The notes: generated by a model from the sequence alone, not told the origin. Positions 5,820 to 60,719 are shown, numbered from the stretch's first letter. The stretch: DNA of 64,000 nt from a virus (IMGVR_UViG_2517572207_000003); one strand, 5' to 3'. Numbers and translations: made by a program.

Positions 5820-6416
5820 ATGGATATATCTGAAAGAGAATATCTTGCCGAGAGACTTGATGATCAGATTAATTGGTATGATAAAAAGAGTATAGAGTGT
5901 CAAAAATACTACAAACGGTGGAAAAGAGCGGAGATAGTTGCCGCTGCTCTGATTCCTGTTTTAACAAGCTTTTCCTCCGGATTAAGATGGATCGCCATTG
6001 TTATCGGCGCTCTAGGAGCATGTATAGCATTATTCGAAAGCATACTTAGTCTACACAAATACCATGAAAATTGGATTGAATACAGGGGAATTTGCGAAAC
6101 TCTGAGGCAAGAAAAGTATATGTATCTTACGAGAACAGGAATTTACAAGATCGCAGACGGGGCATTTAATTTGCTAGTAGAGCGTGTGGAAAGTGTTATT
6201 TCAAAAGAAAATGTCAATTGGGCTAATTTGCATGCAAATGAACAAAAAAAAGAGAGCCATCAGCAGCAAGCGCCTGCTCTGAATTTATTCATACAATCTC
6301 ACCTCTGCATTATATTATCATATGGAAAAGGAGCTTCATTTATATGGCATTATACAATATTTTCATCAGCCACGCTTGGAAATATACTGAACATTATGAG
6401 GATTATCAAGACCTAA
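5820..6416 (+). CDS. DUF4231/SLATT-like 2TM effector protein
   Basis: YxxxRLDDQINWYDKKS, two TM segments, ENWIEYR...VERVE; the tail overlapping the next gene may be read-through. Confidence 0.8.
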   Translation: MDISEREYLAERLDDQINWYDKKSIECQKYYKRWKRAEIVAAALIPVLTSFSSGLRWIAIVIGALGACIALFESILSLHKYHENWIEYRGICETLRQEKYMYLTRTGIYKIADGAFNLLVERVESVISKENVNWANLHANEQKKESHQQQAPALNLFIQSHLCIILSYGKGASFIWHYTIFSSATLGNILNIMRIIKT

Positions 6417-6485: not shown

Positions 6486-6513
6486 CTTTTACTAAAGCAC
6501 CCGTTAGTACAAT
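6486..6513 (-). repeat. palindromic cassette-boundary site 1
   Basis: CTTTTACTAAA-GCACCC-GTTAGTACAAT. Confidence 0.7.
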
Positions 6514-6623
6514 AAGTTCAATAAAAAAGACCATCAAAAATGATGGCCCTACTTCACAAACTATTACACAGTCATTAAAAAAATAAAGGACATTAAAGCT
6601 AATAAAATCCTTCAACTTTAATT

Positions 6624-7832
6624 TTATTGTTCCATAACATTTCTAACAAACAATTGCTTGTTTTTATGAGCAATTGTACTTACTATCGCAAGTAATAGCC
6701 CCGAAATAACGAATACAATTCTAATTCCTAACAAATCTGCTAATACTCCCATAACAAGAGAGCCAACGCCAAAAATCCCAGTTCCGATAGCACCTAACGA
6801 GGTATAAACAGTTGATAACTGTTCTTTTGACACACTAGTTTGTATAACCGTTTGTTGAGGAATTTTTTTAATTTGTCCAAAAAGCCCTACACAGAGCGAT
6901 AAAAGTAAGGAAATCATTGGAATGCTGTTTATGCTAAATAATATTGTGAATAAGAAACTTGCAAATGAACCGACAAAAATAAAGGTTCCTATTTTCTTTT
7001 CAACAAAAGAAGAAAATTTAATACAATAAGCACTTCCTAAAATCAGACCTAAAAAGTTAGCTCCATTGATAAATCCCCACCATTTTTCATCAACGTTCAA
7101 AGCCTCGTTGACAAACACATATAAAATAGCAGCTATCCAAACCGTTGCAGCAATTGTTTCCAAAAATTCTATCCAAGCAATCCTTCTTAATACTGGAGTG
7201 TTAGATAAAGTTTTCCAACCTTCTTTAATTTTTTCTAGTTTCCCTTTTTGCTCGGTTGTTTTATGGTTTACACTTTCTAAAAGGCAAAGTAATATGCTTG
7301 CAATTACAAATAAACATCCAACTAACCAAATAAGTTGTTGAGAACTCATAATAATTAGCAATGAACTTCCTACGAACCACATACCTGCTTGTATGGTCTG
7401 CGTAATTGTTTCTGCAATTCCATTAGCTTGAATTAGACATTCAGGTTTAACATAGTATGGAGTTAATGTCTGTCTTATTGGATTTGCACATCCGTCAAAA
7501 AAAGCAATCAATCCTATTATTAAAAAGATAAAATAATAATTAGCTGCTGTTAAACCAATTAACATAAACCCTAGAATAAAGAGTAAAATCGTCTTTACAA
7601 TTTGTGACCCAGCAAGTAACCATTTAAGATTTAATTTCTCAACCAAAAGAGGAGTCAGCAGACTGGATATAAACATAGAAGAAGCAATCGTAAATGGAAC
7701 AAACGATGCTGCAATTGCAGAACCTGTTAATACAAAAATTGTACTTATAACACCGACTATATATAATACATCGCCTATATTAGCGAGTGATTGACCCAAA
7801 AGTAATAAAGAAAAATTTTTATTCAATTTCAT
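6624..7832 (-). CDS. MFS transporter (DHA3/Mef-like efflux)
   Basis: 402 aa, ~12 TM, GQSLANIGD and GVLAD motifs. Confidence 0.88.
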   Translation of the reverse strand: MKLNKNFSLLLLGQSLANIGDVLYIVGVISTIFVLTGSAIAASFVPFTIASSMFISSLLTPLLVEKLNLKWLLAGSQIVKTILLFILGFMLIGLTAANYYFIFLIIGLIAFFDGCANPIRQTLTPYYVKPECLIQANGIAETITQTIQAGMWFVGSSLLIIMSSQQLIWLVGCLFVIASILLCLLESVNHKTTEQKGKLEKIKEGWKTLSNTPVLRRIAWIEFLETIAATVWIAAILYVFVNEALNVDEKWWGFINGANFLGLILGSAYCIKFSSFVEKKIGTFIFVGSFASFLFTILFSINSIPMISLLLSLCVGLFGQIKKIPQQTVIQTSVSKEQLSTVYTSLGAIGTGIFGVGSLVMGVLADLLGIRIVFVISGLLLAIVSTIAHKNKQLFVRNVMEQ

Positions 7833-7833
7833 T

Positions 7834-7912
7834 ATATATCCCCTATTATTTCATTCGAATTTGGCTTAATAGGGGTATATTAGATTGGACTATTCATTAA
7901 AATTTGACTCCT
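7834..7912 (-). promoter_or_regulatory. translational attenuator: leader peptide MNSPI (7880..7897) plus RBS-sequestering hairpin
   Basis: AGGAG-ATG AAT AGT CCA ATC TAA, then TATACCCCTATTA pairs with TAATAGGGGATATA covering the MFS RBS. Confidence 0.6.
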
Positions 7913-8092
7913 ATCATATATGGGACAAATCTGGGGATATAGATTTATCACAAATTTTGTATCATCGATTAATATTTAAATGAATTATAGCATATTTTTT
8001 CACTCCCATAGTAATTATATTCATACACCATTTTTTCCTTACGATTCTTTTATTTATATTCAGTAAATTCTCCATAAAATATAAAAATCCTA

Positions 8093-8121
8093 CTTCCGCT
8101 AAACTGCCCCGTTAGTTGAAT
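8093..8121 (-). repeat. palindromic cassette-boundary site 2
   Basis: CTTCCGCTAAA-CTGCCCC-GTTAGTTGAAT. Confidence 0.7.
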
Positions 8122-8330
8122 AAGAAGTTATGAGGGAGAATAAAACGGAAGTCCTTATTGTTATATAAGGTTGCTTTTGAAACATCAGCTTCACTTGCTA
8201 CACTGTTAAAGTTTATTTTCTCATTGGCTCTTATGAGCCTTTTAATGGCTTCATCTACCTTTTGAGAAGTAGTAGCCTTGCGATTAGTATGAATGGCTTT
8301 CAAGTGGGCAGAACGGTTATATTCAGCATT
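8112..8330 (-). pseudogene. TnpC-like (DUF6262) gene, truncated
   Basis: INFNSVASEADVSKATLYNN HTH; ends at site 2. Confidence 0.7.
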
Positions 8331-8339
8331 GCCTTCGTG

Positions 8340-9640
8340 GTTGTTTTAATATGAAGCTCATATTTTTGCTTATCTAACTCCGAAAAACCAACAGCTAAGT
8401 CTTACATGGGGTTTGATTGTCACCACAAGTGAGGCACGGGGGAGCTTCCATATGGGGGCAATTACCGTTCAAACGAGTGTGGCACCTTCCATAGGGGTTA
8501 TCCATCGCATTTAGTTTATGGTCTTGCCATAAAGCATCCAAAATATCTGTTGGTATATCTTCTCCTTCCTTAATTTCTTGAATTTCACCATTTAAATCGA
8601 AACTGAATACTCCTTACTTCACAGCGGATTCAAAGGCTTCTCTTTTGGTTTCATCTAATAGTTTAGCGTATCGCATTGTCATTTCTGGAGAAGCATGAGC
8701 TAAAAGCTCTTGAACAGTTAGAATATCTGCACCACTATTTATCATTTTCACTCCATAAGTATGTCGAAACTGATGCATCGCGAAATGAAAAAGATTGCCG
8801 TTTTCGTCAGTGATATTCACTTTTTTTGCTAATATATTTAATGCGCTATTAACCCAATTTTGCCCATATGGTTGTCCTTTTCGTTTTCCACGATATCGCA
8901 CAAAAATATAATCCTTTGGATTATTATCTTGATTACTATATTTTTTTGATTTATCGATTAGAACGGCAAGGATTCCTGCTAACTCTTCATCAATTGGAAT
9001 ACGATGTTCTTTCACATAGGTTTTTCTTATATCTGTTACTATAGAGTATTGCCCGTTTAGTTGAACTAAGCAGTCAAAGGTTAGTTCTAATGCATCGGAT
9101 ATTCTAAGCCCTGTTTTAAATGCCGCCCAAACTATCGGAACAATATCTTTATGTAATTCATCTAGGTGAGAAAAAAGCTGCTCTAAGACAAAATCCGGAA
9201 TGTAATAGATTTGGTCAACGGATTTCTCTCTCGGTTTAGGCTTATCTTCAGGAAAAATCAACAATCTTACATGTTTTTCAGAAGCTATTTCATACTCATA
9301 TCGTTGAATATCTTCAAGAAATTTTTGTATAGTGCCTAATGCTATTGATATATATGCTTCAGGATGTGCATTCTTTTGTTTCAGTTGAATTTGAATATTC
9401 ATGTAGAAATTCGATGTATTTTTCTATGTGCTTTCGCTTTAAAGCTTTTAAATCTTTCCATTTTGGTTCTAGTGTAAATACAAATGTAAAAAAAGATGGT
9501 AAAAACGTTATATAATTTAATGCCGTACCCCATGCGAATTTATTTTTACTAAGTAATCGTTGCTTAAAATACTTTTTGACTTGCTCACGAATGGTAGTAG
9601 GTATCTTTGAGAAATCAATATAATATTGGCATTAGTTTAG
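8340..9640 (-). pseudogene. Tn554 TnpB-like tyrosine recombinase, fragmented (main ORF 8614..9402)
   Basis: TGLRISD, HQFRHTYG, LLAHASPEMTMRYA catalytic motifs; flanking frames carry stops and frameshifts. Confidence 0.8.
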
Positions 9641-10291: not shown

Positions 10292-10772
10292 CTTCCCTGT
10301 CCCCTTCCTGACTTCCGCTTTTACTTTTTAGAACCTCAACCGCTTGTCGGATCACTGGTGGTATTGGCGCTCCAAGCCTGCCCCCGTTTTCCAGAATCGA
10401 AAGCAGCTCATTTGCCATATAAAAATAGGCGACCACATCCCGGAATAGGTGCGAATCGCCTAAGACTCCATCAATCAGATGGGATACTGATACCATTGCA
10501 AAAATAAATACCTTTCGAGCGATACCGATAAGACCAATCTTGCTTTTTAAACCGGGCCCGGTTCCCTTCTTACCTTCTACGCCAGCGGTAAATAATCCAG
10601 TCACATAATCAATAATGACCAGAGCAAGTAACACCCCCAATACTCCCGACCACCCACCGTAAAAATACGTCACAGCGCTGCTTCCTAAAGCAGTACTGAA
10701 CTTAAAAACCTCCCACTTATCCACCTTGCTTCCCCCGTCTCTCCGTTCAGGAAACTTTTCCTGAGCTATCAT
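10269..10772 (-). CDS. phage holin (toxin secretion/phage lysis holin family); near-identical to 33430..33927
   Basis: IIDYVTG, RKVFIF, ANELLSILEN motifs; likely start GTG (VDKWE). Confidence 0.88.
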   Translation of the reverse strand: MIAQEKFPERRDGGSKVDKWEVFKFSTALGSSAVTYFYGGWSGVLGVLLALVIIDYVTGLFTAGVEGKKGTGPGLKSKIGLIGIARKVFIFAMVSVSHLIDGVLGDSHLFRDVVAYFYMANELLSILENGGRLGAPIPPVIRQAVEVLKSKSGSQEGDREDASKEKR

Positions 10773-10968
10773 CGTCTACTTTCTGTTCCTTTTCTTCCTG
10801 GGCCTGTATCTCTGCTAATGCATTTCCTACTGCTATATCCAACCCCTCAAGTATTTCTTTACGTTTATGTGGCTGTGAAGCAATTACAGCAGAAATGATC
10901 TCAGTTAAATCCTCAACAGGTCTGGTTAGATCCAGTTGTATGTCCAATGTGGATTTTATCTTTGCCAT
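10747..10968 (-). CDS. phage hypothetical protein (homolog of 33902..34123)
   Basis: MAKIKSTLDIQLDLTRP near-identical. Confidence 0.8.
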   Translation of the reverse strand: MAKIKSTLDIQLDLTRPVEDLTEIISAVIASQPHKRKEILEGLDIAVGNALAEIQAQEEKEQKVDDDSSGKVS

Positions 10969-11121
10969 GGGTTTCGTCACCCCCTCAAGACGCAAAATAA
11001 GCCCCTGATTTATCAGAGGCTTTCATACCTATATCTTAAATTGGTTTTATTACTATAACGGTGCGGATTTTAAACAGAAATATTGCTCAGCAAAAATAAG
11101 GTTGTAGAGTGACTATACATC

Positions 11122-13745: not shown

Positions 13746-14000
13746 TACTATTGTGATAAACTGGATGTAATTTGATGATGGGAGTTGAACGGATACATGT
13801 AGAACTTTCTTGCTTCGAGATCACGAAAAGAACGGACTCAGCGATTGGCTAGGGTCGTTTTATTTCGTCTCTGCAAGAAAGGTCTGCGTTTCGTTTGCGC
13901 TCCCTCTCCGGACAGTCATATGGCCCCCTTGTAATGGGGTCTTATTTCCTCGTATGGATTAGAGCCGCAAGAAAGCACCTTTCTTGCGGCTCTTTTTTAT
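13734..14000 (+). promoter_or_regulatory. sigmaA promoter and transcription attenuator leader of the ABC-F gene
   Basis: TTGTAG-17-TAAACT with extended TG; CTTTCTTGC (13805-13) / GCAAGAAAG (13873-81) alternative pairing; terminator 13961-13999. Confidence 0.75.
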
Positions 14001-14023
14001 TTCCAAACGAAAGGATGATTGCC

Positions 14024-15511
14024 ATGCCCGCCATTCAGGTAACCAATCTTACTTTTGCCTATCCAGGCAGCTATGACCCTATATTCGAAAATGTTCATTT
14101 TCAAATTGATACAGACTGGAAGTTGGGCTTTACAGGACGAAACGGTCGGGGTAAAACGACGTTCTTAAACCTGCTGCAGGGGAAGTACGAATACAGCGGT
14201 ACGATCTCCACACCAGTCGCCTTTGATTATTTTCCGTTTCCCGTCGAACATCCGGAGTATTTGACTTTAGATGTCGTCGAAGAGATCGTGCCAAGCTATG
14301 AGAACTGGAAGCTGATGCGTGAACTGAACCTGCTTAAGGTTTCAGAAGACGTGTTGTACCGACCATTCGAATCGCTGTCCCAAGGAGAACAGACGAAGGT
14401 ATTGCTGGCTGTGCTATTCATCCAAGACAATCGATTTCTGCTCATCGACGAGCCGACCAATCATCTCGATTTGCACGCACGCAAGCTTGTCGCCGATTAT
14501 CTGAATACGAAGCGTGGTTTTATTCTTGTTTCACACGACCGTGCTTTTCTCGACCGCTGCGTGGATCATATTCTGTCGATCAACAAAACGAATATTGAAA
14601 TCCAAAAAGGCAACTTCTCCAGCTGGTGGACGAACAAAACTCGCCAGGATACATTCGAAATGGCACAAAACGAAAAGCTGTACAAAGACATACAGCGTTT
14701 ATCAGCTTCCGCTAAACGTACTAGTAGCTGGTCTTTCGAGACCGAAAAATCGAAAAACGGCACACGAAATTCCGGTTCCAAACTTGACAAGGGGTACGTC
14801 GGACATAAGGCAGCCAAAATGATGAAACGCTCAAAATCCATCGAACAGCGGCAACACACTGCTTTAGAGGAAAAATCGAAACTGCTCCGAAATATCGAAC
14901 AGTCAGAAAGCCTTGCGATCTCTCAGCTCGTGTATCCCAAATCGGAATTGGCGATACTGGATCATGTTACGATTTACTACGGGGAAAGAGCAGTATGCAA
15001 GAACGTTAGTCTGATGATTGAACCAGGAGATCGGATTGCAATTTCAGGTCCAAATGGTTCAGGTAAGTCTAGCTTGCTTCACCTGCTCAACGCTGAGGAG
15101 CTATACTATACAGGTACGTTTCAACGGGATCCGCAGCTTCGCGTTTCCTATGTATCCCAGAATACTTCTGATTTGCGAGGTACGCTTTCCGATTATGCAG
15201 CAGAGCACAGAATTGACGAAAGCTTATTTAAAGCCGTGTTGCGTAAGCTAGATTTCGCCCGCATCCAGTTTGAGAAGGATATATCGGCGTTTAGCGGCGG
15301 GCAGAAGAAGAAAGTTCTGATCGCGAGAAGCCTATGTGAGGAGGCTCATCTGCATATTTGGGACGAACCGCTCAACTTTGTTGACGTGATTTCCCGGATG
15401 CAAATTGAGGAGCTGCTGCTTGAATACACGCCCACCATTGTATTCGTAGAGCATGATCGGGAATTTCATGACCGGGTCGCCACGAAAACGATTGAACTCG
15501 GTGGGGATTAG
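14024..15511 (+). CDS. lsa: Lsa-family ABC-F ribosomal protection protein
   Basis: two ABC domains without TM; TFAYPGSYD.IF...DTDWKLG..GRNGRGKTT and DKGYVGHKAAKMMKR signatures; 495 aa from ATG 14024. Confidence 0.88.
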   Translation: MPAIQVTNLTFAYPGSYDPIFENVHFQIDTDWKLGFTGRNGRGKTTFLNLLQGKYEYSGTISTPVAFDYFPFPVEHPEYLTLDVVEEIVPSYENWKLMRELNLLKVSEDVLYRPFESLSQGEQTKVLLAVLFIQDNRFLLIDEPTNHLDLHARKLVADYLNTKRGFILVSHDRAFLDRCVDHILSINKTNIEIQKGNFSSWWTNKTRQDTFEMAQNEKLYKDIQRLSASAKRTSSWSFETEKSKNGTRNSGSKLDKGYVGHKAAKMMKRSKSIEQRQHTALEEKSKLLRNIEQSESLAISQLVYPKSELAILDHVTIYYGERAVCKNVSLMIEPGDRIAISGPNGSGKSSLLHLLNAEELYYTGTFQRDPQLRVSYVSQNTSDLRGTLSDYAAEHRIDESLFKAVLRKLDFARIQFEKDISAFSGGQKKKVLIARSLCEEAHLHIWDEPLNFVDVISRMQIEELLLEYTPTIVFVEHDREFHDRVATKTIELGGD

Positions 15512-15592
15512 AATTTTACAAATTGAATTGGATTAAGACATGATTTCAACGATAGAAAGCTTTGTTCAACAACTTTTATGAAAAGGAAAAAG

Positions 15593-15621
15593 ATTGAACT
15601 AAAGGCACACGATAGTTCAAT
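15593..15621 (+). repeat. palindromic cassette-boundary site 6
   Basis: ATTGAACTAAA-GGCACAC-GATAGTTCAAT. Confidence 0.8.
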
Positions 15622-15819
15622 CGAACATCGGCAGTCTAGGATTTTATTTTTTCGTCCATGGCTGCCGATGGTTTTATTGAAGACAGTTTAATAGTTATCT
15701 CACTAAGACTAAGAAGCTTATATTATTTTACAGTGGGTTTTGCTTCTTCTACTCTACTCTCACTGTCCATTATGGGAAATTCCGCTTCAAATGCTATTGC
15801 AAAACGGACAACAGGATCA

Positions 15820-16146: not shown

Positions 16147-16652
16147 TGCTGCTTTTGCTCACTTTCTTAATATTGCTCATCCTCCTCCCAACAGATAAGA
16201 AACAATAAAAAAACACAAGCAATTACGCTTGTGTTTTGATGCAGCCTATATCAGATCACTCTCAAAGAGACAAGACCCTGAAACTGTACCACGTAAGGCT
16301 TCAAGCTCATCCAGAGCTTTCTTTAAATCACCGTCCATCGCTCATATCCTATTTTCATTAAGCACATTCCCCTCTGTACAATTCATGATTACTTTAGAAT
16401 AATCCGCAAAAACGTTGCGCTTGCCATGCAGGTCCAGTCGCGAAACAGCCCCGGCAATTTCCGTAACTCACCGTGTGGAAAACGACACCCCCATTGAAAA
16501 GGATGCCTCAACACTATGAATAAAGTAACAAATTTCAGGATAAAAAATCATAGTTCCTAATGTCAGAAGAAGCCAAAGTATTAGACTGACCTTAGAAATT
16601 GAAACAGCGACAACTAAGACGAGGAAATAGGGTCCTTGATTGTCGCTATTGC

Positions 16653-16681
16653 ATTGAACTAACGTATCCCGTTAGTTCAAT
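16653..16681 (-). repeat. palindromic cassette-boundary site 7 (perfect arms)
   Basis: ATTGAACTAAC-GTATCCC-GTTAGTTCAAT. Confidence 0.85.
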
Positions 16682-16695
16682 GGATTAATATACAA

Positions 16696-17514
16696 CTAAA
16701 ATCCAAACTCTGTTACTCTTTCAAGCCACTCACGCATAAGTGACTCAAATAATAGAGTCTGTTCAATCTGAAGATTATGGCCTGCTCGATCTAGAACGGC
16801 AAAGGTTGCTCTAGGATAATTGTCTAAAATTCTAAAAGCATCTATGTAACCAACAACTGCATCTTGTCGCCCAAGAGTAAATACTGTTGGTTTATCGAAA
16901 ACTAATTCATCTATATTGGTGGAAAATCCATAGTTTCTTTGAATCTTGCTAAGAAAATCGTAGTCAGCGATCTTACAACCTGCCATGATCTCTTCTGAAT
17001 ACCTTTTCCAATTATATTCATTGAGAACGACTTGATTTGCGCTAAAATCACTTACTTGCTCTTCACTTAAGGTGTCCATAAACTCGCGATCACTATGAAC
17101 AACAAAATGCTCGGGAAGTATTCTTCTTTTGTGTTCAGGAATAATTAATGGGCAAATCAGTGCAGCCCCACCAATACGATCTTTATGTCTATTAATTATT
17201 CCTCTTGTAATATATCCACCGTATGATTCACCTGCTATGAGATAATCTTGGTTTGGGACAAGAGTTTCAATAAAATTTATAACTGCTTCTAGCATATCAT
17301 CTGAATTACATATTTGATCGTAATCCTTTGTTTGTCCCATTCCAGGCAGGTCAAGATAGATACGACGCCAATTGGAATTATCTTCAAATATCGGTTCCAT
17401 ACACCCACTCATTAACCGATGGTCTGGTGTAAAACCATGGATCATTATAATTGGTTTGCCTTTACCAATTTCCTCGTAATATATATTGGCATTCTTGACT
17501 TTACAATATGGCAT
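16696..17514 (-). CDS. alpha/beta hydrolase
   Basis: HGFTPD, DLPGMG, GESYGG nucleophile elbow, AGHNLQIE. Confidence 0.9.
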   Translation of the reverse strand: MPYCKVKNANIYYEEIGKGKPIIMIHGFTPDHRLMSGCMEPIFEDNSNWRRIYLDLPGMGQTKDYDQICNSDDMLEAVINFIETLVPNQDYLIAGESYGGYITRGIINRHKDRIGGAALICPLIIPEHKRRILPEHFVVHSDREFMDTLSEEQVSDFSANQVVLNEYNWKRYSEEIMAGCKIADYDFLSKIQRNYGFSTNIDELVFDKPTVFTLGRQDAVVGYIDAFRILDNYPRATFAVLDRAGHNLQIEQTLLFESLMREWLERVTEFGF

Positions 17515-17644
17515 ACAGACTCCTCCAAAATTGAGTTATTATTATAATATTCTTACACTAAAGAAGAATCTACATGTTTTATCAAGCAAACCAGATCTCC
17601 TTTCCGTTTCGTTTTGATTATATACGCATATATAATATATGTAA

Positions 17645-17658
17645 AGAACACTTGTTCC
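17645..17658. promoter_or_regulatory. putative LexA (Cheo) box
   Basis: AGAAC-ACTT-GTTCC. Confidence 0.5.
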
Positions 17659-17675
17659 CTATTCTTGTTTTCGGA

Positions 17676-17703
17676 GTTAAACTAACCTGCCCGTTACTTC
17701 AAT
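17676..17703 (-). repeat. palindromic cassette-boundary site 8
   Basis: GTTAAACTAAC-CTGCCC-GTTACTTCAAT. Confidence 0.8.
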
Positions 17704-17783
17704 GAAAAAAAGCAGCCCCTCATGAACTGCCCTACTGCTAGTCACTTCAACAATAGGATGAGTTCATACAAGGGCTACCCCAT

Positions 17784-18053
17784 TTACCAAGTAATCCAAC
17801 CGCTCGTTCGTTTGTAACTGTGCAGGATCTCGTATTCCTCACTACGCATCAGTCGTTTCATTTTTGTTCTATACAGCCGATAATCATCTTTTCTTGCTAC
17901 TTTACATTCTTTGTTGTAATGAACACTCTTGATTCCTTTACGGAAATCCTTAAGCTTCTCTTTTCTTGGATCTTTGGGCTTATTATTGATCTCCAGACTA
18001 CGCTGTTTCTCATCTTCCCAGGATTGAATCTCTTCCCGTGTAAACATCTTCAT
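17784..18053 (-). CDS. basic hypothetical protein
   Basis: ORF between sites 8 and 9; start uncertain. Confidence 0.55.
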   Translation of the reverse strand: MKMFTREEIQSWEDEKQRSLEINNKPKDPRKEKLKDFRKGIKSVHYNKECKVARKDDYRLYRTKMKRLMRSEEYEILHSYKRTSGWITW

Positions 18054-18176
18054 CCCCGTTGTGCCGGGTTAGATTTTGGCATTTGAAGCCATGACCTTAG
18101 ACACAACTAATAGAAGAAGATCTTCGGATTGAACATTAAATCACCTCTGAATTTATTCGCCCTTATTTTAACATAT

Positions 18177-18204
18177 TTATAACTATTCTTCCCGTTTTAC
18201 GCCT
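18177..18204 (-). repeat. degenerate cassette-boundary site 9
   Basis: TTATAACTATT-CTTCCC-GTT then diverges. Confidence 0.4.
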
Positions 18205-18320
18205 TCAATCAGTGTTTAGACAATCATTTTACATATTTGAAATTTGCAACTTTCCCCTCTAAACCTTCCTCATCCTGGTCCGTTCCTGTTTCACCATGAG
18301 CTCCCTTCTAAAGGGAGTCT

Positions 18321-19238
18321 TTATGCATAGGTATACTCCGGTCCCAATCGTTCGATAATTCGATCCAACTGTCTGGTTAGATAAGGCGAAACGTCACCAA
18401 TGCCAGACACTGCTTCTAACAAGGGAAAGGATTGCCCACCCCACGGGCCTTGTGGATCAAAGACTTGTCTACCGATTCGCAAGCCTTCTGTTTCCCTGAA
18501 GATGTTCAATCGTTCCAATCCTTCAATAAGCAGCCCGACCGGCAGCGTTTTGTTCCTACGTCGGGACCATTCTGCCAAGAAGGACATGCCACGTAATATA
18601 TCATATTCAAAAAACCTCGGAAAACAAGGCTTCAGCCATTCCATATCGATGACACTTCTATTTTGTTTAGAACATACAAGACGATGCTCAATTAAATAAC
18701 GTGCGCCTTCATCTAAGAAAACGACTTCCTGTTCAGTAAATTCACGGTCTGTATGCCATAAGATAGCTTCAAGCGGAGGAAGTGTCGAAACAATAGAGCT
18801 CTTTTTAGAATGAATATAAGCTTCAGGATCGCAGTTCAGTCCGCCATCAGGTAACTGATGCTTTAAGAGCCATTCGCGAATCCAAGGCAGTTCCTTGTCC
18901 AAATCACAGCCATACGCCATTAGAATCATATAGTATACGGCAAGTTCACAATGGCAGCAATCCATCTTCATCTTATCACTTTCACTTGTTGGATGGTCAT
19001 CGGGGAATATGATGAAGGTGGGCCAAACCTGAGTTTCGAGTAAATATTTTGCTCCAGTAATAGCAGACTCGGGAATTAGTTTCACCTCACCCATTTCATA
19101 AAGAGCAGCCATATGCCACCAAGCTCCATCCCATTTTCGACGGCTGCACTCGCCGTGAGTCATCCCCAAATGCGGAGTAGATTCAAGGAACTGTATAGAT
19201 TCTTCGATTGCTAAACGAATATTTTGATTTGCTTCCAT
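18321..19238 (-). CDS. hypothetical protein with prenyltransferase/squalene cyclase-like repeat
   Basis: WLLKHQLPDGGLNC QW-like motif; FPRFFEYDILRG. Confidence 0.7.
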   Translation of the reverse strand: MEANQNIRLAIEESIQFLESTPHLGMTHGECSRRKWDGAWWHMAALYEMGEVKLIPESAITGAKYLLETQVWPTFIIFPDDHPTSESDKMKMDCCHCELAVYYMILMAYGCDLDKELPWIREWLLKHQLPDGGLNCDPEAYIHSKKSSIVSTLPPLEAILWHTDREFTEQEVVFLDEGARYLIEHRLVCSKQNRSVIDMEWLKPCFPRFFEYDILRGMSFLAEWSRRRNKTLPVGLLIEGLERLNIFRETEGLRIGRQVFDPQGPWGGQSFPLLEAVSGIGDVSPYLTRQLDRIIERLGPEYTYA

Positions 19239-19333
19239 CTGGGTATCTCCTTTTTGATTACCTCTACTTCACACTTCAGTTAAGCAACGCCTCACCTCGT
19301 ATACCCTTCCACTCTTAAAAAATTCGATATGTT

Positions 19334-19361
19334 ATTAAACTATCCTGCCCGTTAGCTTAAT
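19334..19361 (-). repeat. palindromic cassette-boundary site 10
   Basis: ATTAAACTATC-CTGCCC-GTTAGCTTAAT. Confidence 0.8.
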
Positions 19362-19449
19362 GAGGCATCGTCAGAATATTACTTTATTTTTCAGTTTAGA
19401 ACTTTATTTTCTTCTGACACCTATAATAAAGACCGCAAAGGCTTAAGCC

Positions 19450-19670
19450 CTTTGCTTCTGGCATTCTAAGTCCAATTTCTCCTTCTTGGTTTCGCCCCCG
19501 ACCATAGTCGATCATCACAAAATCCAATGTTCGGTTGACAGACTTTTTGCTAAATTTTCTTTGACCTTGCGTCTTTTGTCAGCGAATGTTGTGGCTGATA
19601 TACCATGAATACCTTTTTTATACTCTGCTCATATACTGTTGAGCTTTTAGATACAAAAGCTTTGCAGCAA
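19450..19670 (-). pseudogene. 3' remnant of a late transcription regulator homologous to 60720..61352
   Basis: ATTFADKRR...NRTLDFV.IDYGRG.N.EGEIGLRMPE shared. Confidence 0.75.
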
Positions 19671-25275: not shown

Positions 25276-25692
25276 TTACTTTGCAGTAGGGTAATCTTTA
25301 ACACCTAGTCTTTCCTTAAGCGCGTGCTGTAACACCTGTGAAAAGTTAATTTTCTCACGAGTAGCTTCCCGCTCAAGCCAGCGTGGAAGTGTGACATTTT
25401 TGGTCACTGCTTTGTTCATCATTTCGTCCCTGATCGTCCCCATCCTTATCTCGATCAAAGTGATGAAAGAATCGGGTGGCAATTGAATGCTCGCTGGATC
25501 AGAAGCTGGCGGAATCACTTCGTTGTCCTCTTCAAGGCCAAACAATTGCAGCTCTAAGCACTCCTTCGCCATTCGCAAAGCCTCAGACATATCATCGCCT
25601 TCTGTTATCGCTCCAGGAAGATCCGGAAAAGTGACTGTGTAACCTTTCACTTCACCCTTTTCAAATATTGCAGGGTAAATGTATTTATCCAT
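25276..25692 (-). CDS. hicB: HicB antitoxin
   Basis: YPAIF...YTVTFPDLPGAITEGD; C-terminal KNVTLP...INFSQVLQ. Confidence 0.92.
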   Translation of the reverse strand: MDKYIYPAIFEKGEVKGYTVTFPDLPGAITEGDDMSEALRMAKECLELQLFGLEEDNEVIPPASDPASIQLPPDSFITLIEIRMGTIRDEMMNKAVTKNVTLPRWLEREATREKINFSQVLQHALKERLGVKDYPTAK

Positions 25693-26095: not shown

Positions 26096-26965
26096 GTGGT
26101 CTATTTGTTTATTTCTCCAATGTTACTTGAAACAGCGGCTGCCCCCTTTTCGGATTCGCGCTATATCTTCGAACCGAAAATAGACGGCCACCGCTTAATA
26201 TATTCGCAACAGAACGGCATTGTACGCTTATTCACGCGCCATAACAATGACTGCACACGCCAATACCCGGAGATAGCTAGCGTTACATTCCCGCATGACA
26301 TTGTGTTGGACGGTGAGATTGCGTGCGTTGATCCGACAACGGGTGTATCGGATTTTGAATCCGTTATGTCCCGCTTCCAGGCGAGGAAAACGGACAAGAT
26401 TACTAAGCTCGTAGCTGAATTACCGGCTACTTTCGTTGTCTTCGATGTCTTGAGCTTTAAAGGCGAGGACTTGCGGAGCCTTCCGCTTATGGAACGCAAG
26501 TCCATACTCGCTAGTCTAACGCTTCCTAGCCCTAGTTTCGGGGTTGTTCCGTATATTGAAGGCGCCGGGGAGGCGTTGTTCGAGCAGATAGAAGCGCGCG
26601 GCATGGAAGGCCTGGTCGCCAAGCGTAAGGATAGTATGTATATCAGCCGCCGATCAGCGTCCTGGCAGAAGGTCATTAACTGGTCCTATGCCGATGTGTA
26701 CATTACGGGTTATCGTAAAGAGGAATTCGGATGGCTTGTATCAGTGCCTAATGAGCGCGGTAACCTTCGTCCCGCCGGCATTATTGAGCACGGAGCTAGC
26801 CCAATGCACAAGAAGGCGTTCTATGGCGTCGTGGCACCGTTAAAGACCGATGAGGATCGCGAATTTGTTTACGTGGAGCCGCGCATAAGAGCCCGTGTTA
26901 AAATGCGAAACTGGACTAAGGCGGGTAACTTGCGGATACCAGTATTTACGGAATTTATAGTTTAA
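26096..26965 (+). CDS. ATP-dependent DNA ligase (LigD ligase-like)
   Basis: EPKIDGHR (motif I), LDGEI, FDVL, EGLVAKRKDS.Y...RS..WQK. Confidence 0.9.
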   Translation: MVYLFISPMLLETAAAPFSDSRYIFEPKIDGHRLIYSQQNGIVRLFTRHNNDCTRQYPEIASVTFPHDIVLDGEIACVDPTTGVSDFESVMSRFQARKTDKITKLVAELPATFVVFDVLSFKGEDLRSLPLMERKSILASLTLPSPSFGVVPYIEGAGEALFEQIEARGMEGLVAKRKDSMYISRRSASWQKVINWSYADVYITGYRKEEFGWLVSVPNERGNLRPAGIIEHGASPMHKKAFYGVVAPLKTDEDREFVYVEPRIRARVKMRNWTKAGNLRIPVFTEFIV

Positions 26966-33461: not shown

Positions 33462-33879
33462 TACCGTTTCCCCCTTTTCCTTTCAATACCTCAACCGCTT
33501 GTCGGATCACTGGTGGAATTGGCGCTCCAAGCCTGCCCCCGTTTTCCAGAATCGAAAGCAGCTCATTTGCCATATAAAAATAGGCGACCGCATCCCGGAA
33601 TAGGTGCGAATCGCCTAAAACTCCATCAATCAGATGGGATACTGCTACCATTGCAAAAATAAATACCTTTCGAGCGATACCGATAAGACCAATCTTACTT
33701 TTCAAACCGGGTCCGGTTCCCTTCTTACCTTCAGCACCAGCAGCAAATAATCCGGTCACATAATCAATAATGACCAGAGCAAGTAACACCCCCAATACTC
33801 CCGACCACCCACCGTAAAAATACGTCACAGCGCTACTTCCTAAAGCAGTGCTGAACTTAAAAACCTCCCACTTATCCAC
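33430..33879 (-). CDS. phage holin (toxin secretion/phage lysis holin family)
   Basis: DYVTG...ANELLSILEN; GTG start. Confidence 0.88.
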   Translation of the reverse strand: MDKWEVFKFSTALGSSAVTYFYGGWSGVLGVLLALVIIDYVTGLFAAGAEGKKGTGPGLKSKIGLIGIARKVFIFAMVAVSHLIDGVLGDSHLFRDAVAYFYMANELLSILENGGRLGAPIPPVIRQAVEVLKGKGGNGSDNNTGVGKE

Positions 33880-33901
33880 CTTGCTTCCCCCGTCTCTCCG
33901 T

Positions 33902-34123
33902 TCAGGAAACTTTTCCTGAGCTATCATCGTCTACTTTCTGTTCCTTTTCTTCCTGGGCCTGTATCTCTGCTAATGCATTTCCTACTGCCATATCCAAACC
34001 TTTAAGTATTTCCTTCCGGCGCGCTGGTTGCGAAGCAATAACAGCAGAAATGACCTCGGTCAATTCTTCAATCGGCCTCGTTAAATCCAATTGTATATCC
34101 AATGCGGATTTTATCTTTGCCAT
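33902..34123 (-). CDS. phage hypothetical protein
   Basis: conserved in two other copies in the window. Confidence 0.8.
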   Translation of the reverse strand: MAKIKSALDIQLDLTRPIEELTEVISAVIASQPARRKEILKGLDMAVGNALAEIQAQEEKEQKVDDDSSGKVS

Positions 34124-34443
34124 GGTTTCGTCCCCCCCTCAAGACGCAAAATAAGCCCCTGATTTATCAGAGGCTTTCATACTTATATCTTAAATTGCTT
34201 CTATTGCTGTAGTGCTACGGATTTATCCGCAAGCATACTGTCAATTTCATTAATGTATTCTGTTTGCATTAAGGTGCAATTGGTGGTAGCCTTCTTTCGC
34301 TTTGTCTAATATAAGCAAGGCTGTACCGACCGTGCAGCTTTGCTCACCCAAATAGCTGAGTATATGTTTACACAATCTGCCTTTATAAAGAGTAAAAGCC
34401 TATCCCAAAATTAGGACAGGCTTTTCTATATCTCTATTTTATT

Positions 34444-55232: not shown

Positions 55233-56663
55233 TCAACCAAATGAAAATACATTTTTGAATTTAATATTTGCAAAAGATAATACAAATGCGTCGGCCCTAT
55301 CCGGTGAGGGTAGGCCGCGCTTTTTCATATCCTCTTTTCGTTCTAAAAATATCTTTCCGTTGCTACCCATCCGCCATTTTCGGGAAGTGAGCTGCGTTAT
55401 AAGTTTCTCGTCATCTGGCAATTGCAGTTCACCCGGCTTGCCAAGCACATAGTTGCTCATATTAGCCTCAAGCATTTCTTTGACATGTCCCCACTGTTCA
55501 GCCCCTAGATTCCCATAATGACCGTCTTCCGCTGCTGATCCATTGTTAACTGGAATGATGGTGTAGCCTAGACTTTTCTCCTCATTAATCTCATTCAATC
55601 TATCTGTTACAGCTCCACCTATTCCACTATCATCAATTCTTATTTCTACTTCGTCCATTTCTGTACGCTCTGCCTTTACATCATCAACCAGGCGTAATAC
55701 CCAGCCTGTGGTTGTCATAGTGTCCTGCTTGTGGTGGAAATGAGTCTTTACCACCTTGCCTCCCATACGTGCGTACATGGTTGTCTCATCGTCTCCAAAA
55801 CGTGCAACGTCAACACCTACAAATAGCTTTGTTCCAGAAGGTTCAATTTTAACTTCATCTTTGGCAAATTCCGCAGCTTCCAGAGAGATGAATGTATCAG
55901 ATTCACCACGGGGAAACTCGCCTTCTACACGAACGCGCCATACATCGCTTCCCTCTCCATATTTCCGTTTAAGCATAGCGATGTTTTCTTTACTCGTTCT
56001 CGGACTGTCCAAACAGGATACCTTACGTGTTTTATAATCAGATCTATCCTTATTGTGCGAATCATAAAAAACACCCGACGTTTTTGTCGGGTTTCCACAC
56101 ATCAGTATTTTATTGAACTCACCCGACAACGTACCTAAAATGGCTTCCATGATTGGATCAGCAACACCCGATGCCTCATCCACAACAAATAGCATGTAGT
56201 CCTCATGAAAGCCTTGCATATTTTCAGGCTTGGTTGCTGTCCGAGCTGTAGCGAACCATCGTTCCTCATAATTTTTCATGTATATTTTGGTCTTAGTCCA
56301 CTTAAGGATTCGTTTCAGCACCGGACTTTTAGATTGCCATTTATTTATCTCAGCCCATAACACGTCATGTAGTTGCTGCCTTGTAGGAGCTGTACAAATT
56401 ACCTTTGGATATGGGAAACACGACAAGAACCATAGAGCTGTTGCCGCTTCTAATCCTGTTTTTCCTACGCCTTGACCTGAACGTACTGAAACACGAGGAT
56501 TATTAGCTAAATCCATTAGAGTGCTTGCCTGCCAATCATCAGGATAGAACTTAAGCATCTCTTGACAGAACAATGTGGGATTCTTGCGATACTCAGGAAT
56601 CCTTTTCTTGAATGCTTGAAGTCTCCGTTTCGTCTCCGGTGAGTCCTTCGTCTTCATCGCCAA
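55233..56663 (-). CDS. terL: terminase large subunit
   Basis: SGQGVGKT Walker A, VVDEASG Walker B, GNPT, GVDVARFGDD, SPDRADA. Confidence 0.95.
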   Translation of the reverse strand: MAMKTKDSPETKRRLQAFKKRIPEYRKNPTLFCQEMLKFYPDDWQASTLMDLANNPRVSVRSGQGVGKTGLEAATALWFLSCFPYPKVICTAPTRQQLHDVLWAEINKWQSKSPVLKRILKWTKTKIYMKNYEERWFATARTATKPENMQGFHEDYMLFVVDEASGVADPIMEAILGTLSGEFNKILMCGNPTKTSGVFYDSHNKDRSDYKTRKVSCLDSPRTSKENIAMLKRKYGEGSDVWRVRVEGEFPRGESDTFISLEAAEFAKDEVKIEPSGTKLFVGVDVARFGDDETTMYARMGGKVVKTHFHHKQDTMTTTGWVLRLVDDVKAERTEMDEVEIRIDDSGIGGAVTDRLNEINEEKSLGYTIIPVNNGSAAEDGHYGNLGAEQWGHVKEMLEANMSNYVLGKPGELQLPDDEKLITQLTSRKWRMGSNGKIFLERKEDMKKRGLPSPDRADAFVLSFANIKFKNVFSFG

Positions 56664-57876
56664 CCACCGCCTCTACCCAATCGTCAATTAAATCGTCTTC
56701 TGAATTTCCTTCTCCAGTGACCTTTGCCCTTTCAAGCTCAAGTTTCTCACGTTGCATCTTAAGTTTCTCGTCTTCAACCATCCGTTTATGTTTGTCTGGA
56801 AGCAGATCCATGTATTTAGTTAGCACGTCCAATGCCTTGGTTTTGTCGTGTAGCTTTACGCTCACTCCATCCTTACCCTGCTTGACTTCTGAAACCAGAG
56901 TTCCATCAATTTCATCGCTGTTTTTAAAAGAGACATAATTGTATCTGTACTTCTTCGTTTCTCCAGTGTCAGGATCAAACACAGGATCTCCTTCTAAGCC
57001 AAGAACATCTTCTTCCTTTTGACCGAATTCTACGTAATCCGTAATGTCTGCGAAAGCAATCTTCATGTACTCCATTAGAACTCGCTGAGCATTTAAACCC
57101 ACCTCGTCGATCATTGTTTCCTTGTGCTGCCGAATAATGTTTTGGATTTCAACTTTCTTCAACAGAGCGAAACCAATCTGATAGGCAGTTTTCTTACTGT
57201 ATCCCGCCGCAATCGCTGACCTGGTAGCGTTGAAGTCTCGAAGGTATTCATAAGTGAATATCCTTTGCTTAGGCGTTAATCCATCCTCATCGGGAATTTC
57301 CGGTTCAGGTTCTTCAACAACCGTTGGAGCACTCTGTACTTTTTTGGAACGTTCCATATTACCGGAGCGTTCCGGTACTTTTTTCGGAGCGCTCCGTATT
57401 TTTGGAGTTTCCCCCAGCTCTTTTGATAGTGCATCAACAGTAAGCAGAGTAGCATATACTTCCCTCGGCTTATCACCTTGATATGTACCAATGAATTTGC
57501 GCCGCTCCATTTCATCAATCAGTCGGGCCGCTCTGCTATAACCTATCCTCATTCTTCTCTGTAATAAAGAAACCGAGGCTTGTTTGGCCTCGGCTACAAT
57601 TTGGACAGCTTTTAGAAAAAGATCGTCTGGATATGATGTTGTATCTTCATCTTTCTTTGCAGGTTCATTTTTTTTATCAGTTTCATCTTCATCGGAACGT
57701 TCCGTATGTTTCGCTTCTCCAATCAAACTCTCCCACTTATCTTTAGCCTTCCATCCTCTTACCGTACCTTCAGATACACTAAGCTGAGATGCTATATCTG
57801 TGAGACGTATGTTGCCGGAACTGGCTTTGTATAAATCAAATGCTTCGTCCCGTTTAGGATCTCTCTTTCGTCCCAT
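56593..57876 (-). CDS. terS: terminase small subunit with internal FtsK/SpoIIIE gamma domain
   Basis: N-terminal HTH (TVRGWKAKDKW); ASVSLLQRRMRIGYSRAARLIDEME...KPREV gamma motif; LTPKQRIF..EYL.DFNATRSAIAAGYS TerS domain. Confidence 0.88.
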   Translation of the reverse strand: MGRKRDPKRDEAFDLYKASSGNIRLTDIASQLSVSEGTVRGWKAKDKWESLIGEAKHTERSDEDETDKKNEPAKKDEDTTSYPDDLFLKAVQIVAEAKQASVSLLQRRMRIGYSRAARLIDEMERRKFIGTYQGDKPREVYATLLTVDALSKELGETPKIRSAPKKVPERSGNMERSKKVQSAPTVVEEPEPEIPDEDGLTPKQRIFTYEYLRDFNATRSAIAAGYSKKTAYQIGFALLKKVEIQNIIRQHKETMIDEVGLNAQRVLMEYMKIAFADITDYVEFGQKEEDVLGLEGDPVFDPDTGETKKYRYNYVSFKNSDEIDGTLVSEVKQGKDGVSVKLHDKTKALDVLTKYMDLLPDKHKRMVEDEKLKMQREKLELERAKVTGEGNSEDDLIDDWVEAVVGDEDEGLTGDETETSSIQEKDS

Positions 57877-59846: not shown

Positions 59847-60029
59847 GTTTATTGCCTCCTAAAATAGTTTTAATTTGTTCCTGAATAAAGTGTAAATCCT
59901 TTCTACTCCGTACCTACTACGGATTTGCTAGTTCCTACTATCAGCAGAAAATAAAGTGGTAGACTGAGCCTAGAAATTGAAAACAGCGACAACCAAGGAC
60001 GAAAAAAAGTCCTAGACTGTCGCTGTTCC

Positions 60030-60058
60030 ATTGAACTAACGTTCCCCGTTAGCTTAAA
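60030..60058 (-). repeat. palindromic cassette-boundary site 11 (contains the NUDIX stop codon)
   Basis: ATTGAACTAAC-GTTCCCC-GTTAGCTTAAA. Confidence 0.85.
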
Positions 60059-60518
60059 CCATATTCTCCAGATACTTGTTGAATAAGGCTAATGAGTATT
60101 GCTTTTGAGAGATCAAATTTTCTGTAATCTGTTTAATTACTTCTTTATCGCGTAGCTCAAGTGAATCTGGAATCAACAGATCCGTAGGTGCTATCCATTT
60201 CGAATCAATGATCTCCGTTGTATCTAACTGAAGAGAACCACCGATGATTTCACCAATAAAATGAAATAAAATAACCTGGTGATTTGTACTACTAATGAAG
60301 TTATAAATACCTGTAGTGGCTGTAAGTTTAACGTCGTAGCCGGTTTCTTCTTTTGCTTCTCTACGTGCCGCCTCTAGAATATCTTCATCATATTCGATTC
60401 TCCCTGACGGGAAGTTCCATGTATTCTTAACAGATGCTTTGTTTTCTTTGATCATAAGCAGCTTATCTTCATGTATTATCGAAACACTCACAACCAATAC
60501 AATCCCGTTTTGAGTCAC
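60054..60518 (-). CDS. NUDIX hydrolase
   Basis: Nudix box G-x5-E-x7-REAKEETG. Confidence 0.92.
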   Translation of the reverse strand: MTQNGIVLVVSVSIIHEDKLLMIKENKASVKNTWNFPSGRIEYDEDILEAARREAKEETGYDVKLTATTGIYNFISSTNHQVILFHFIGEIIGGSLQLDTTEIIDSKWIAPTDLLIPDSLELRDKEVIKQITENLISQKQYSLALFNKYLENMV

Positions 60519-60561
60519 GCTAAAAAACCTCCATAGTTAGAAAATTAACGTCACTATTATT

Positions 60562-60575
60562 AGAACATATGTTCC
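60562..60575. promoter_or_regulatory. putative LexA box upstream of NUDIX gene
   Basis: AGAAC-ATAT-GTTCC. Confidence 0.55.
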
Positions 60576-60604
60576 GATTTTTGTAAATGACTGGATCACC
60601 GCTC

Positions 60605-60632
60605 ATTATACTAACCTGCCCGTTAGCTTTAT
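60605..60632 (-). repeat. palindromic cassette-boundary site 12
   Basis: ATTATACTAAC-CTGCCC-GTTAGCTTTAT. Confidence 0.8.
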
Positions 60633-60719
60633 GAAGCATCGTCAAGACTATTACTTTATTTTCAGTCTAGAACTTTAGACACCTAAAATTAAGACCGCAA
60701 AGGCTTAAGCCCTTACGGT

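Follow-up and report, generated by a model that had tools for sequence, protein, structure and literature searches.

Integrons are the textbook gene-capture device, and with the dif (pdif) modules of Acinetobacter, the XerS/difSL system of streptococci and lactococci and the REP/BIME repeats they are the closest described systems to the one examined here. In a 64,000-nucleotide stretch of viral DNA (IMGVR_UViG_2517572207_000003; "the window" means this whole stretch), two phage-derived loci carry different genes between short imperfect palindromes. These palindromes are probably the recombination sites of an order-wide gene-cassette system and not a device of this phage, with a Xer-like enzyme as the best candidate recombinase; we put the probability of this reading at roughly 0.6. 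Such an integron-like system in this order of Gram-positive soil bacteria is apparently undescribed. The full-text literature searched gave no description of such sites and cassettes; most subscription journals lay outside its coverage, so an earlier description is possible.

Integron core sites follow the consensus RYYYAAC / GTTRRRY, which the arm cores of the present palindromes (AACTAAC / GTTAGYT) resemble. As in integrons, among them sedentary chromosomal arrays such as the Vibrio VCR arrays, the cassettes are mostly single-gene accessory units of one orientation bounded by imperfect palindromes, the crossover appears to lie at a fixed point with part of the site travelling with the cassette, and the cargo is of the same kind (NUDIX proteins, hydrolases, acetyltransferases, transporters and many small unfamiliar open reading frames, ORFs). 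Orphan arrays with no enzyme occur too, like attC-site clusters that have no integron-integrase (CALINs) treated in the part of PMC4889954 consulted. The attC sites of integrons measure 57-141 bp, hold two core-site pairs and are recombined as a folded single strand. Here a lone palindrome of the duplex type, 29-30 bp long and of one or the other spacer class, can also bound a cassette. The ~100-bp doublets described below have the attC layout; three of 11 can fold into a single long hairpin with DNA parameters, and single 29-bp sites bound cassettes as well. Integrons also have attI and a common promoter beside intI, with promoterless cassettes, whereas here the candidate recombinase gene sits inside an array cassette and some cassettes bring their own promoter or terminator. 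The model TIGR02249 for the integron integrase, a tyrosine recombinase that bears an insertion specific to integrons, had no match over its cut-off in five genomes (that of the window and four site-rich ones), and the 280-amino-acid (aa) candidate enzyme scores 87-91 bits against it (cut-off 265). According to the part of PMC4889954 consulted, complete integrons were not found in Firmicutes, to which the present hosts belong; this leaves a gap in the account of how Gram-positive soil bacteria put together islands of small accessory genes. A system of site-bounded cassettes, present on chromosomes, plasmids and prophages alike, would fill it and link phages directly to cassette traffic.

The Acinetobacter dif modules are likewise accessory modules bounded by 28-bp Xer-type sites (11-6-11) and shuffled between replicons, with no need for a recombinase beside each module. 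These sites are similar to the host's own chromosomal dif, and XerC and XerD bind them. Insertion sequences target pdif sites at a fixed position and orientation (PMC10132070, in the portion consulted), and an IS110-family element described below is the parallel here. The dif modules differ in having alternately inverted sites on small plasmids, whereas the present sites are direct repeats in long chromosomal arrays with a separate Xer-like enzyme linked to them. Among the literature matches listed, and in the excerpts of them seen, dif modules are reported only for Acinetobacter. With an 11-nt arm motif, six dif look-alikes (11-6-11) were found within 46 kb (C1:2999009-3044666) of the window's genome, ~160-200 kb from the GC-skew maximum; two flank a xerD-like gene (3008248-3009219), and the arms of these XerCD-type look-alikes are unlike those of the cassette sites.

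XerS/difSL pairs one Xer-type recombinase with an asymmetric site of ~31 bp that has a strong and a weak arm (PMC2965235, as excerpted), and a XerS equivalog is a core gene of the present genomes. There, a single difSL is linked to xerS at the terminus; here, tens of sites occur, none of them by xerS, and the presence of XerS does not track that of sites. The single paper found that names both XerS and Paenibacillus assigns XerS, in the passages retrieved, no role in the group. REP/BIME repeats (repetitive extragenic palindromes and the mosaic elements built of them) are also short imperfect intergenic palindromes downstream of genes, sometimes paired. They differ in occurring as hundreds of spread copies with a RAYT gene and delimiting no transferable cassettes; because the present sites number only ~26 in the window's genome and are clustered in accessory regions, they are not a REP-type repeat. 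Matches to Y1_Tnp are broken in the window's genome and in G056 and absent in G326, being broken or absent across five site-rich genomes, and HUH transposases (Y1, Y2) were dropped as candidate enzymes since they are not consistently present in such genomes. The system works like an integron and like the Acinetobacter dif modules, yet it answers to the definition of neither.

Cassettes at the two loci of the window

Each site consists of two inverted arms of ~11 bp around a central spacer of 6 nt (type B) or 7 nt (type A), giving an imperfect palindrome of 29-30 bp. This geometry (11 + 6 or 7 + 11) equals that of Xer-type sites; the central region of dif is 6 bp according to the part of PMC2965235 consulted. 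All cargo genes of the two loci, here called array A and locus B, are on the minus strand, and the loci are laid out as follows.

16605-16647, minus strand: long hairpin with T-run closing array A, conserved with 59984-60025 and inside the left-flank match
16653-16682, plus strand: type A site ATTGAACTAACGTATCCCGTTAGTTCAATG at the distal end of array A; 39.4 bits, inverted arms of 11-13 bp, 7-nt spacer
16696-17514, minus strand: cargo of cassette 3, alpha/beta hydrolase of 272 aa (Pfam Abhydrolase_1, 2.4e-13)
17676-17704, plus strand: internal type B site with 6-nt spacer between the hydrolase and 89-aa cassettes; 34.1 bits
17784-18053, minus strand: cargo of cassette 2, 89-aa ORF of no family, with a second copy on plasmid C2
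~18176-18206, plus strand: degenerate internal site, left arm and spacer retained, right arm disrupted
18321-19238, minus strand: cargo of cassette 1, 305-aa ORF with no family hit and no family assigned
19334-19362, plus strand: type B site ATTAAACTATCCTGCCCGTTAGCTTAATG at the proximal end of array A; 43.1 bits, the best of the genome
19453-20112, minus strand: pseudogene of a 210-aa phage protein (earlier labelled "late regulator"), many stops in translation
59984-60025, minus strand: hairpin with T-run closing locus B, conserved with the hairpin of array A
60030-60059, plus strand: distal type A site of locus B, overlapping the NUDIX stop codon; 36.7 bits
60054-60518, minus strand: NUDIX hydrolase of 154 aa, sole cassette cargo of locus B (Pfam NUDIX, 1.2e-19)
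60605-60633, plus strand: proximal type B site of locus B; 37.1 bits
60720-61352, minus strand: intact 210-aa phage gene, terminator hairpin 60721-60692, between early genes and terminase genes

A first-pass annotation of the window had aligned the flanks of 16561-19445 with those of 59941-60720. BLAST of the window against itself recovered both flanks, slightly wider than claimed: the left one pairs 16551-16675 with 59929-60052 (81.0% over 126 columns, E 3.7e-25) and the right one 19334-19653 with 60605-60932 (76.0% over 338 columns, E 3.7e-63). As had been stated, homology stops at the palindromes. The left-flank match terminates at 16675/60052, within the sites 16653-16682 and 60030-60059, and the right-flank match opens at 19334/60605, the first base of the sites 19334-19362 and 60605-60633.

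The contrast in cargo (hydrolase, hypothetical protein and third ORF against NUDIX alone) also held, apart from the description of the third gene as prenyltransferase-like, for which the support is a weak language-model lead. This 305-aa ORF had no match in Pfam, PHROG or NCBIfam, and the neighbouring clusters in the language-model comparison have a squalene-hopene-cyclase domain in 11-12% of their members. One of the two internal sites claimed (17676-17704) was recovered in full; the other is present in degenerate form, and its plasmid counterpart is a full 33-bit site in the same place. The hydrolase cassette has a promoter-like site of its own at 17645-17617 (TTTACA-17-TATAAT, 11/12 match), and a terminator scan placed a terminator-like hairpin of the 89-aa cassette at 17733-17709. 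Both loci had been said to lead into the late-regulator gene of a prophage. At locus B the gene is intact; at array A it is a pseudogene, in which tblastn covers only residues 103-209 of the 210-aa protein (52%), and the surrounding element is a degraded prophage remnant.

Occurrence of the sites in the genome and the order

Scoring matrices were built from 17 sites taken by coordinate from the window's genome. Hits of at least 18 bits numbered 51 in the genome, against 11 and 5 in two chromosome shuffles, and 26 distinct sites of at least 24 bits were found in 6.2 Mb, on the chromosome, on a plasmid and in prophages. They cluster at ~10 chromosomal places, with two more on the 367-kb plasmid. 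The strand of the sites follows the replichore, minus to the left of the GC-skew maximum (2.84 Mb) and plus to the right of it, with three exceptions; sites of one array are co-directional, and most cargo is antisense to the site orientation as defined here. In large arrays a junction is a doublet of ~100 bp which, in gene direction, comprises a type A site, a GC-rich hairpin with T-run (an intrinsic terminator, conserved between species) and a type B site. The module of type A site and hairpin also recurs in inverted orientation at 15592-15670 and elsewhere in the genome. No Rfam family matches the sites or the doublets. The site at C1:2840223, at the GC-skew maximum, was considered as the chromosomal dif and rejected, being the usual module of type A site and hairpin with accessory neighbours.

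A strict site pattern has matches in 61 of the genus's 93 species genomes; across the order, 173 of 401 genomes have them, representing 28 of 63 genera and four families; the reversed control pattern matched nowhere in these genome sets, and the strict pattern was found in none of the 22 genomes of one sister genus. Other species have dense arrays of small same-strand cassettes: L039 has ~27 sites in 20 kb, L037 has 19 in 10 kb and L038 has 17 in 18 kb, usually with a single small ORF to each interval. Neighbouring same-strand sites delimit 59 intervals, nine of which are doublets and 50 of gene size (median 1473 bp, 18 with a single ORF). Crude ORF calling over the gene-size intervals gave 97 ORFs antisense to the site and 33 sense, and one genome has 21 reverse and no forward site matches. 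Among the cargo are short-chain dehydrogenases accompanied by HxlR regulators, HAD hydrolases, a chloramphenicol-phosphotransferase-like protein, a MarR-GNAT fusion, EamA and major facilitator superfamily (MFS) transporters, a metallo-beta-lactamase-fold protein and many proteins of no family.

Cassettes in more than one context

The 89-aa cassette is present twice in the window's genome: 17682-18196 of the window matches plasmid C2:342408-341896 with 94.2% identity over 515 bp (tblastn of the ORF, 92% at C2:342039-342305). In both copies the match starts in one site and stops in the next at ...CCCGTT, and the sequences outside are unrelated. When 30 fetched loci and the window were compared all against all, three further shared cassettes appeared, within one genome (L011 and L012, 99.6% over 555 bp) and between two species (L011 and L017, 90% over 712 bp; L017 and L020, 95% over 759 bp, where the match runs off the end of the fetched locus). 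Across shared cassettes and prophage flanks, the site-associated ends of alignments lie 3-16 nt from site centres; in two cases the far end of one copy has no site of at least 22 bits within ~450 nt. The sharpest junction is that of L011 and L012. The two are identical through the left arm and spacer (gene direction), and all similarity ends with the base that follows; this assigns the right arm to the downstream cassette, and the left arm with the spacer to the upstream one. In another strain, three contigs match the window only from 16668 (X16), 17694 and 19346 onward, which are site centres. The contigs of four other runs hold array A whole with no joint between sites; the one joint present, in a single run, leaves out 170 bp within the hydrolase gene. 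This speaks neither for nor against excision. An ~88-bp repeat at 17706-17793, lying between the type B site and the stop codon of the 89-aa ORF and including the terminator-like hairpin of that cassette, recurs at C1:2793870-2793957 (93%) and on a P. peoriae plasmid, and has raised depth in four other runs. In the plasmid collection, the only match was a 130-bp repeat from the 3' end of the 89-aa cassette.

The 210-aa protein, used as query, gave 13 related loci, all in Paenibacillus species. For its family 157 relatives were found; among the 120 listed, every named one is called hypothetical and none has a Pfam domain. The sole PHROG hit is of unknown function, and there was no match among 50,697 phage records. 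The label "late regulator" was drawn from position alone and finds no functional annotation in the family. Sites lie beside the gene in four of the 13 related loci (L021, L022, L024 and L030). P. ottowii L021 and L022 and P. farraposensis L024 have both flanks of locus B around other cargo, the breaks falling in the spacers of the B and A sites. Homology of L021 with locus B resumes 7 nt from the centre of the type A site 60030-60059, and that of L021 and L030 ends 5-9 nt from the centre of the type B site 60605-60633; on the A side of L024 the BLAST match begins 76-147 nt out and, by eye, homology resumes at the right arm of the second A site. Breakpoints lying away from the palindromes in related phages had been named as what would speak against exchange of cargo; since the related prophages break at the sites, that part of the proposal survives. 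In P. brasilensis L030 an IS110-family element cuts the B site after ten bases of the left arm.

That element (L030:7738-9100) has split ORFs with DEDD_Tnp_IS110 and Transposase_20 domains and lies at a fixed position inside the type B site. The same junction of IS110 and site is seen in a contig of a second species (run X7, loose end at window 19391), and an IS110 fragment lies inside array L003 of the window's genome. The pattern is reminiscent of insertion sequences that have integron attC sites and pdif sites as their targets.

In the window's two loci, L021, L022, L024 and L030, a type B site lies at equal distance downstream of the terminator of the 210-aa gene. Single-site empty alleles, which had been suggested as something to collect, were not found among the related loci. 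In the two empty alleles, L025 and L023, the terminator of the 210-aa gene is followed by ~23 bp and then by the upstream region of the next phage gene, with no site at all, and seven further related loci also have no site. Occupied and empty alleles thus differ by a whole module (~60 bp, B site, cargo, A site, hairpin, ~60 bp). Sites beside the gene at four of 13 loci, and arrays that are mostly chromosomal or plasmid-borne with no such gene near, are not what a phage-borne platform downstream of a late regulator would give; the phage-platform reading is too narrow.

Candidate recombinase

A gene for a 280-aa tyrosine recombinase (L036:13273-14115) lies between two sites of array L036, in another genus, and provided the lead to the enzyme. 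Sixteen full-length copies from eleven genomes were examined (one with an in-frame TGA). Thirteen have a site of at least 19 bits located 61-100 bp upstream of the start codon; the other three have a 15-bit site, a degenerate look-alike and none, respectively. Similarity between copies starts inside the upstream site, and the gene-side arm and 5' leader travel along, which indicates that the recombinase gene is itself a cassette. No partner ORF is conserved downstream in the copies compared. The protein is 78-92% identical across six genera and two families, and the catalytic residues R138, K162, H229, R232, H255 and Y264 are invariant in five aligned copies. It has the two-domain layout of the Xer family with the R-K-H-R-H-Y set, its best PDB matches are XerD (1e-30) and XerA, with IntI4 well behind (4.5e-13), and its best NCBIfam matches are XerC, XerD and XerA. 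It reaches the cut-off of none of the models for XerC, XerD, XerA, XerS and IntI. Judged from its sequence, it is a Xer-like enzyme that would be none of XerC, XerD, XerS or XerA.

The enzyme is encoded in 19 of the 93 genus genomes (about a fifth), 12 of which hold only fragments or truncated copies. Strict sites occur in 17 of the 19 genomes with the enzyme and in 44 of the 74 without it (Fisher p = 0.015, a p-value that makes the co-occurrence look stronger than it is, since the genomes are related), and the mean number of sites is 4.4 against 2.0. In six site-free genomes tested, the enzyme was absent.

Other recombinases were considered. The window's genome has 21 Phage_integrase and three Resolvase matches, none consistently adjoining arrays. 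A 262-aa tyrosine recombinase (8614-9402) beside the MFS gene of the window, with the usual N-terminal domain missing, was dropped because it occurs in only three of the 93 genus genomes, and XerS had no discriminating power as a predictor of site presence. In the window's genome the XerS equivalog (C1:3033149-3034258) lies beside XerC- and XerD-like genes, and a 42%-identical paralogue is on the plasmid (C2:346541-347614).

Mechanism and alternative explanations

The exchange of discrete gene cassettes at the palindromic sites is well supported, and we infer that it is site-specific, with a Xer-type tyrosine recombinase as the catalyst. Most likely the site-specific recombination is the work of a Xer-like enzyme since lost from the window's genome; the first-pass proposal of site-specific exchange stands as to the swapping of discrete cassettes at palindromes, while the enzyme for the sites is not encoded in that genome. 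In gene direction a cassette would open with the upstream site's right arm, continue with the cargo (in many cases with a promoter and terminator of its own) and close with the left arm and spacer of the downstream site. Crossover would take place at the spacer edge, so that arms would travel with the cassette, and the 280-aa enzyme, itself cassette-borne, would catalyse the exchange. As the window's genome lacks this enzyme, the two loci, with three cassettes and one, would be orphan mini-arrays that either took up their cassettes in the past or can exchange them only if the enzyme is supplied in trans.

More tentatively, and at somewhat less than even odds, the Paenibacillales may hold a second, independently evolved integron-like system, in which a cassette-borne recombinase of Xer descent would capture and shuffle promoter-bearing cassettes at sites of 29-30 bp in two spacer classes. 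With B upstream and A downstream, the two sites flanking a cassette would not match; the cassette would therefore resist excision, yet it could be exchanged as a unit among chromosomes, plasmids and phages, in the manner of engineered recombinase-mediated cassette exchange. If so, prophages like the two of the window would be vehicles moving cassettes between cells. A site of 29-30 bp and a small candidate recombinase are compact enough to suit bench work, and the A and B sites may be a natural heterospecific pair for cassette exchange. The simple signature of the sites also marks accessory genes, including resistance-like ones (an Lsa-like ABC-F gene, MFS transporters and the chloramphenicol-phosphotransferase-like gene).

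Several observations weigh against the proposal of a cassette system served by the 280-aa enzyme. The B and A spacers differ in length, so a classical tyrosine recombinase could not excise a B/A-flanked cassette such as NUDIX, and about one-third of the strong half-sites have no good partner arm. Both empty phage alleles are without any site. Neither an excision circle nor a deletion joint nor an empty single-site allele came to light; the contigs of the four other runs have array A whole, and contigs cannot reveal rare forms. The best match to the enzyme in the window's genome is 28% identical and is XerC. The enzyme is also missing from G056 (21 strict sites), G087 and G111; G111 has one of the densest arrays, and not one of its 14 tyrosine recombinases is located close to an array. 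Arrays thus persist in genomes with no copy: either they outlast their enzyme, in the manner of integron-less attC clusters, or a core enzyme may also act on the sites. The co-occurrence of enzyme and sites is modest and comes from related genomes, and linkage of the gene to sites would equally be expected were the recombinase just another cargo gene.

The alternative that survives best, though we consider it unlikely, is that there is no dedicated enzyme and host dimer-resolution recombinases (the core XerS homologue, or XerC/XerD) move the cassettes, as proposed for the Acinetobacter dif modules. This would account for arrays in genomes without the 280-aa enzyme (that of the window, G056 and G111). 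The XerS equivalog (382 bits, cut-off 267) is a core gene found in 93 of 93 genus genomes; in the two site-bearing families, 219 of 219 and 131 of 136 genomes have it. The plasmid paralogue is 4.6 kb away from the array on that plasmid. Binding of XerS is strong at one arm and weak at the other (PMC2965235, as excerpted), which would accommodate the many degenerate arms. However, XerS is equally present in all 22 genomes of the site-free sister genus and in other site-free families, while G114 has two strict sites and no XerS match at E 1e-40. No site adjoins either xerS gene, and no site-like palindrome was seen near xerS; the XerCD-type look-alikes near 3.0 Mb are unlike the cassette sites, and the array sites are direct repeats and not alternately inverted.

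It is rather improbable that no site-specific enzyme is involved, in which case a conserved intergenic repeat of ~100 bp, made up of a type A palindrome, a terminator and a type B palindrome, would have spread among genes, and homologous recombination of the ordinary kind would swap the genes lying between its copies. Doublets are indeed kept as a unit across species, terminator hairpin included, and repeats of ~100 bp can serve homologous exchange in phages. Many cassette borders, however, are single 29-bp sites with no doublet, as in the window, and they lie at one position, the spacer edge. The best-resolved junctions are similar on one side only, the other arm being degenerate, which leaves no homology for a crossover, and conservation of a 29-bp sequence over 28 genera points to recognition by a protein.

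We regard it as very improbable that the palindromes are operators or transcript-punctuation signals that seem to be borders only as the sole conserved sequence around variable genes. Such a role would fit the flanking of terminators by sites, the -10-like hexamer in the gene-sense right arm of some type B sites and the way in which site orientation tracks gene orientation and flips at the GC-skew maximum. Against it, the sites serve accessory genes that are unrelated to one another and share no regulator, and no Rfam family covers the sites. Where a cassette is seen to have its own promoter, the type B site is upstream of that promoter and hence not part of the mRNA. Nor does a regulatory site account for the same cassette turning up in new contexts, for the link of a recombinase gene to the sites, or for an IS110-family element at a fixed site position in two species. 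Finally, the first-pass version, a phage-family platform anchored downstream of the late regulator as attI is by intI, draws on the equal-distance type B site at six loci and is scarcely credible given that nine of the 13 related loci have no site beside the 210-aa gene, that other arrays have no such gene nearby, that the gene has no recombinase or regulator signature and that the distribution of the sites already contradicts it.

Other features of the window

Two further features of the window resemble parts of the system.

15592-15670, minus strand: inverted module of type A site (25.6 bits) and hairpin; 15609-15674 matches 60042-59980 at 80%
6486-8122, plus strand: uncertain further cassette, an MFS transporter gene (6624-7832, minus strand; MFS_1, 9.9e-17) between site look-alikes at 6486-6514 and 8093-8122

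The look-alikes around the MFS gene score just 13.1 and 12.5 bits, which is in the chance range. An adjoining gene (5820-6416) encodes a DUF4231/SLATT-domain protein, of a family tied to defence-system effectors. An ABC-F gene at 13895-15511 reaches 742.8 bits with the Lsa-family model of ribosomal protection, whose cut-off is 750. As the inverted module at 15592-15670 comes directly after it, gene and module may together be a cassette in the opposite orientation.

The prophage of locus B spans ~32.7 kb to beyond 64 kb and has endolysin, tail, terminase and early genes, the small terminase gene being at 56593-57876. The remnant around array A retains a holin copy, its structural genes being gone. 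A 758-bp segment covering the holin gene is shared between remnant and intact prophage (10313-11070 and 33468-34224, 92% identity), and several shorter matches connect 1-14 kb with 27-36 kb of the window; because of these the two elements are regarded as relatives. Between the remnant and the lysis genes of the prophage lie a HicB-like antitoxin gene (25276-25692) and an ATP-dependent DNA-ligase-like gene (26096-26965).

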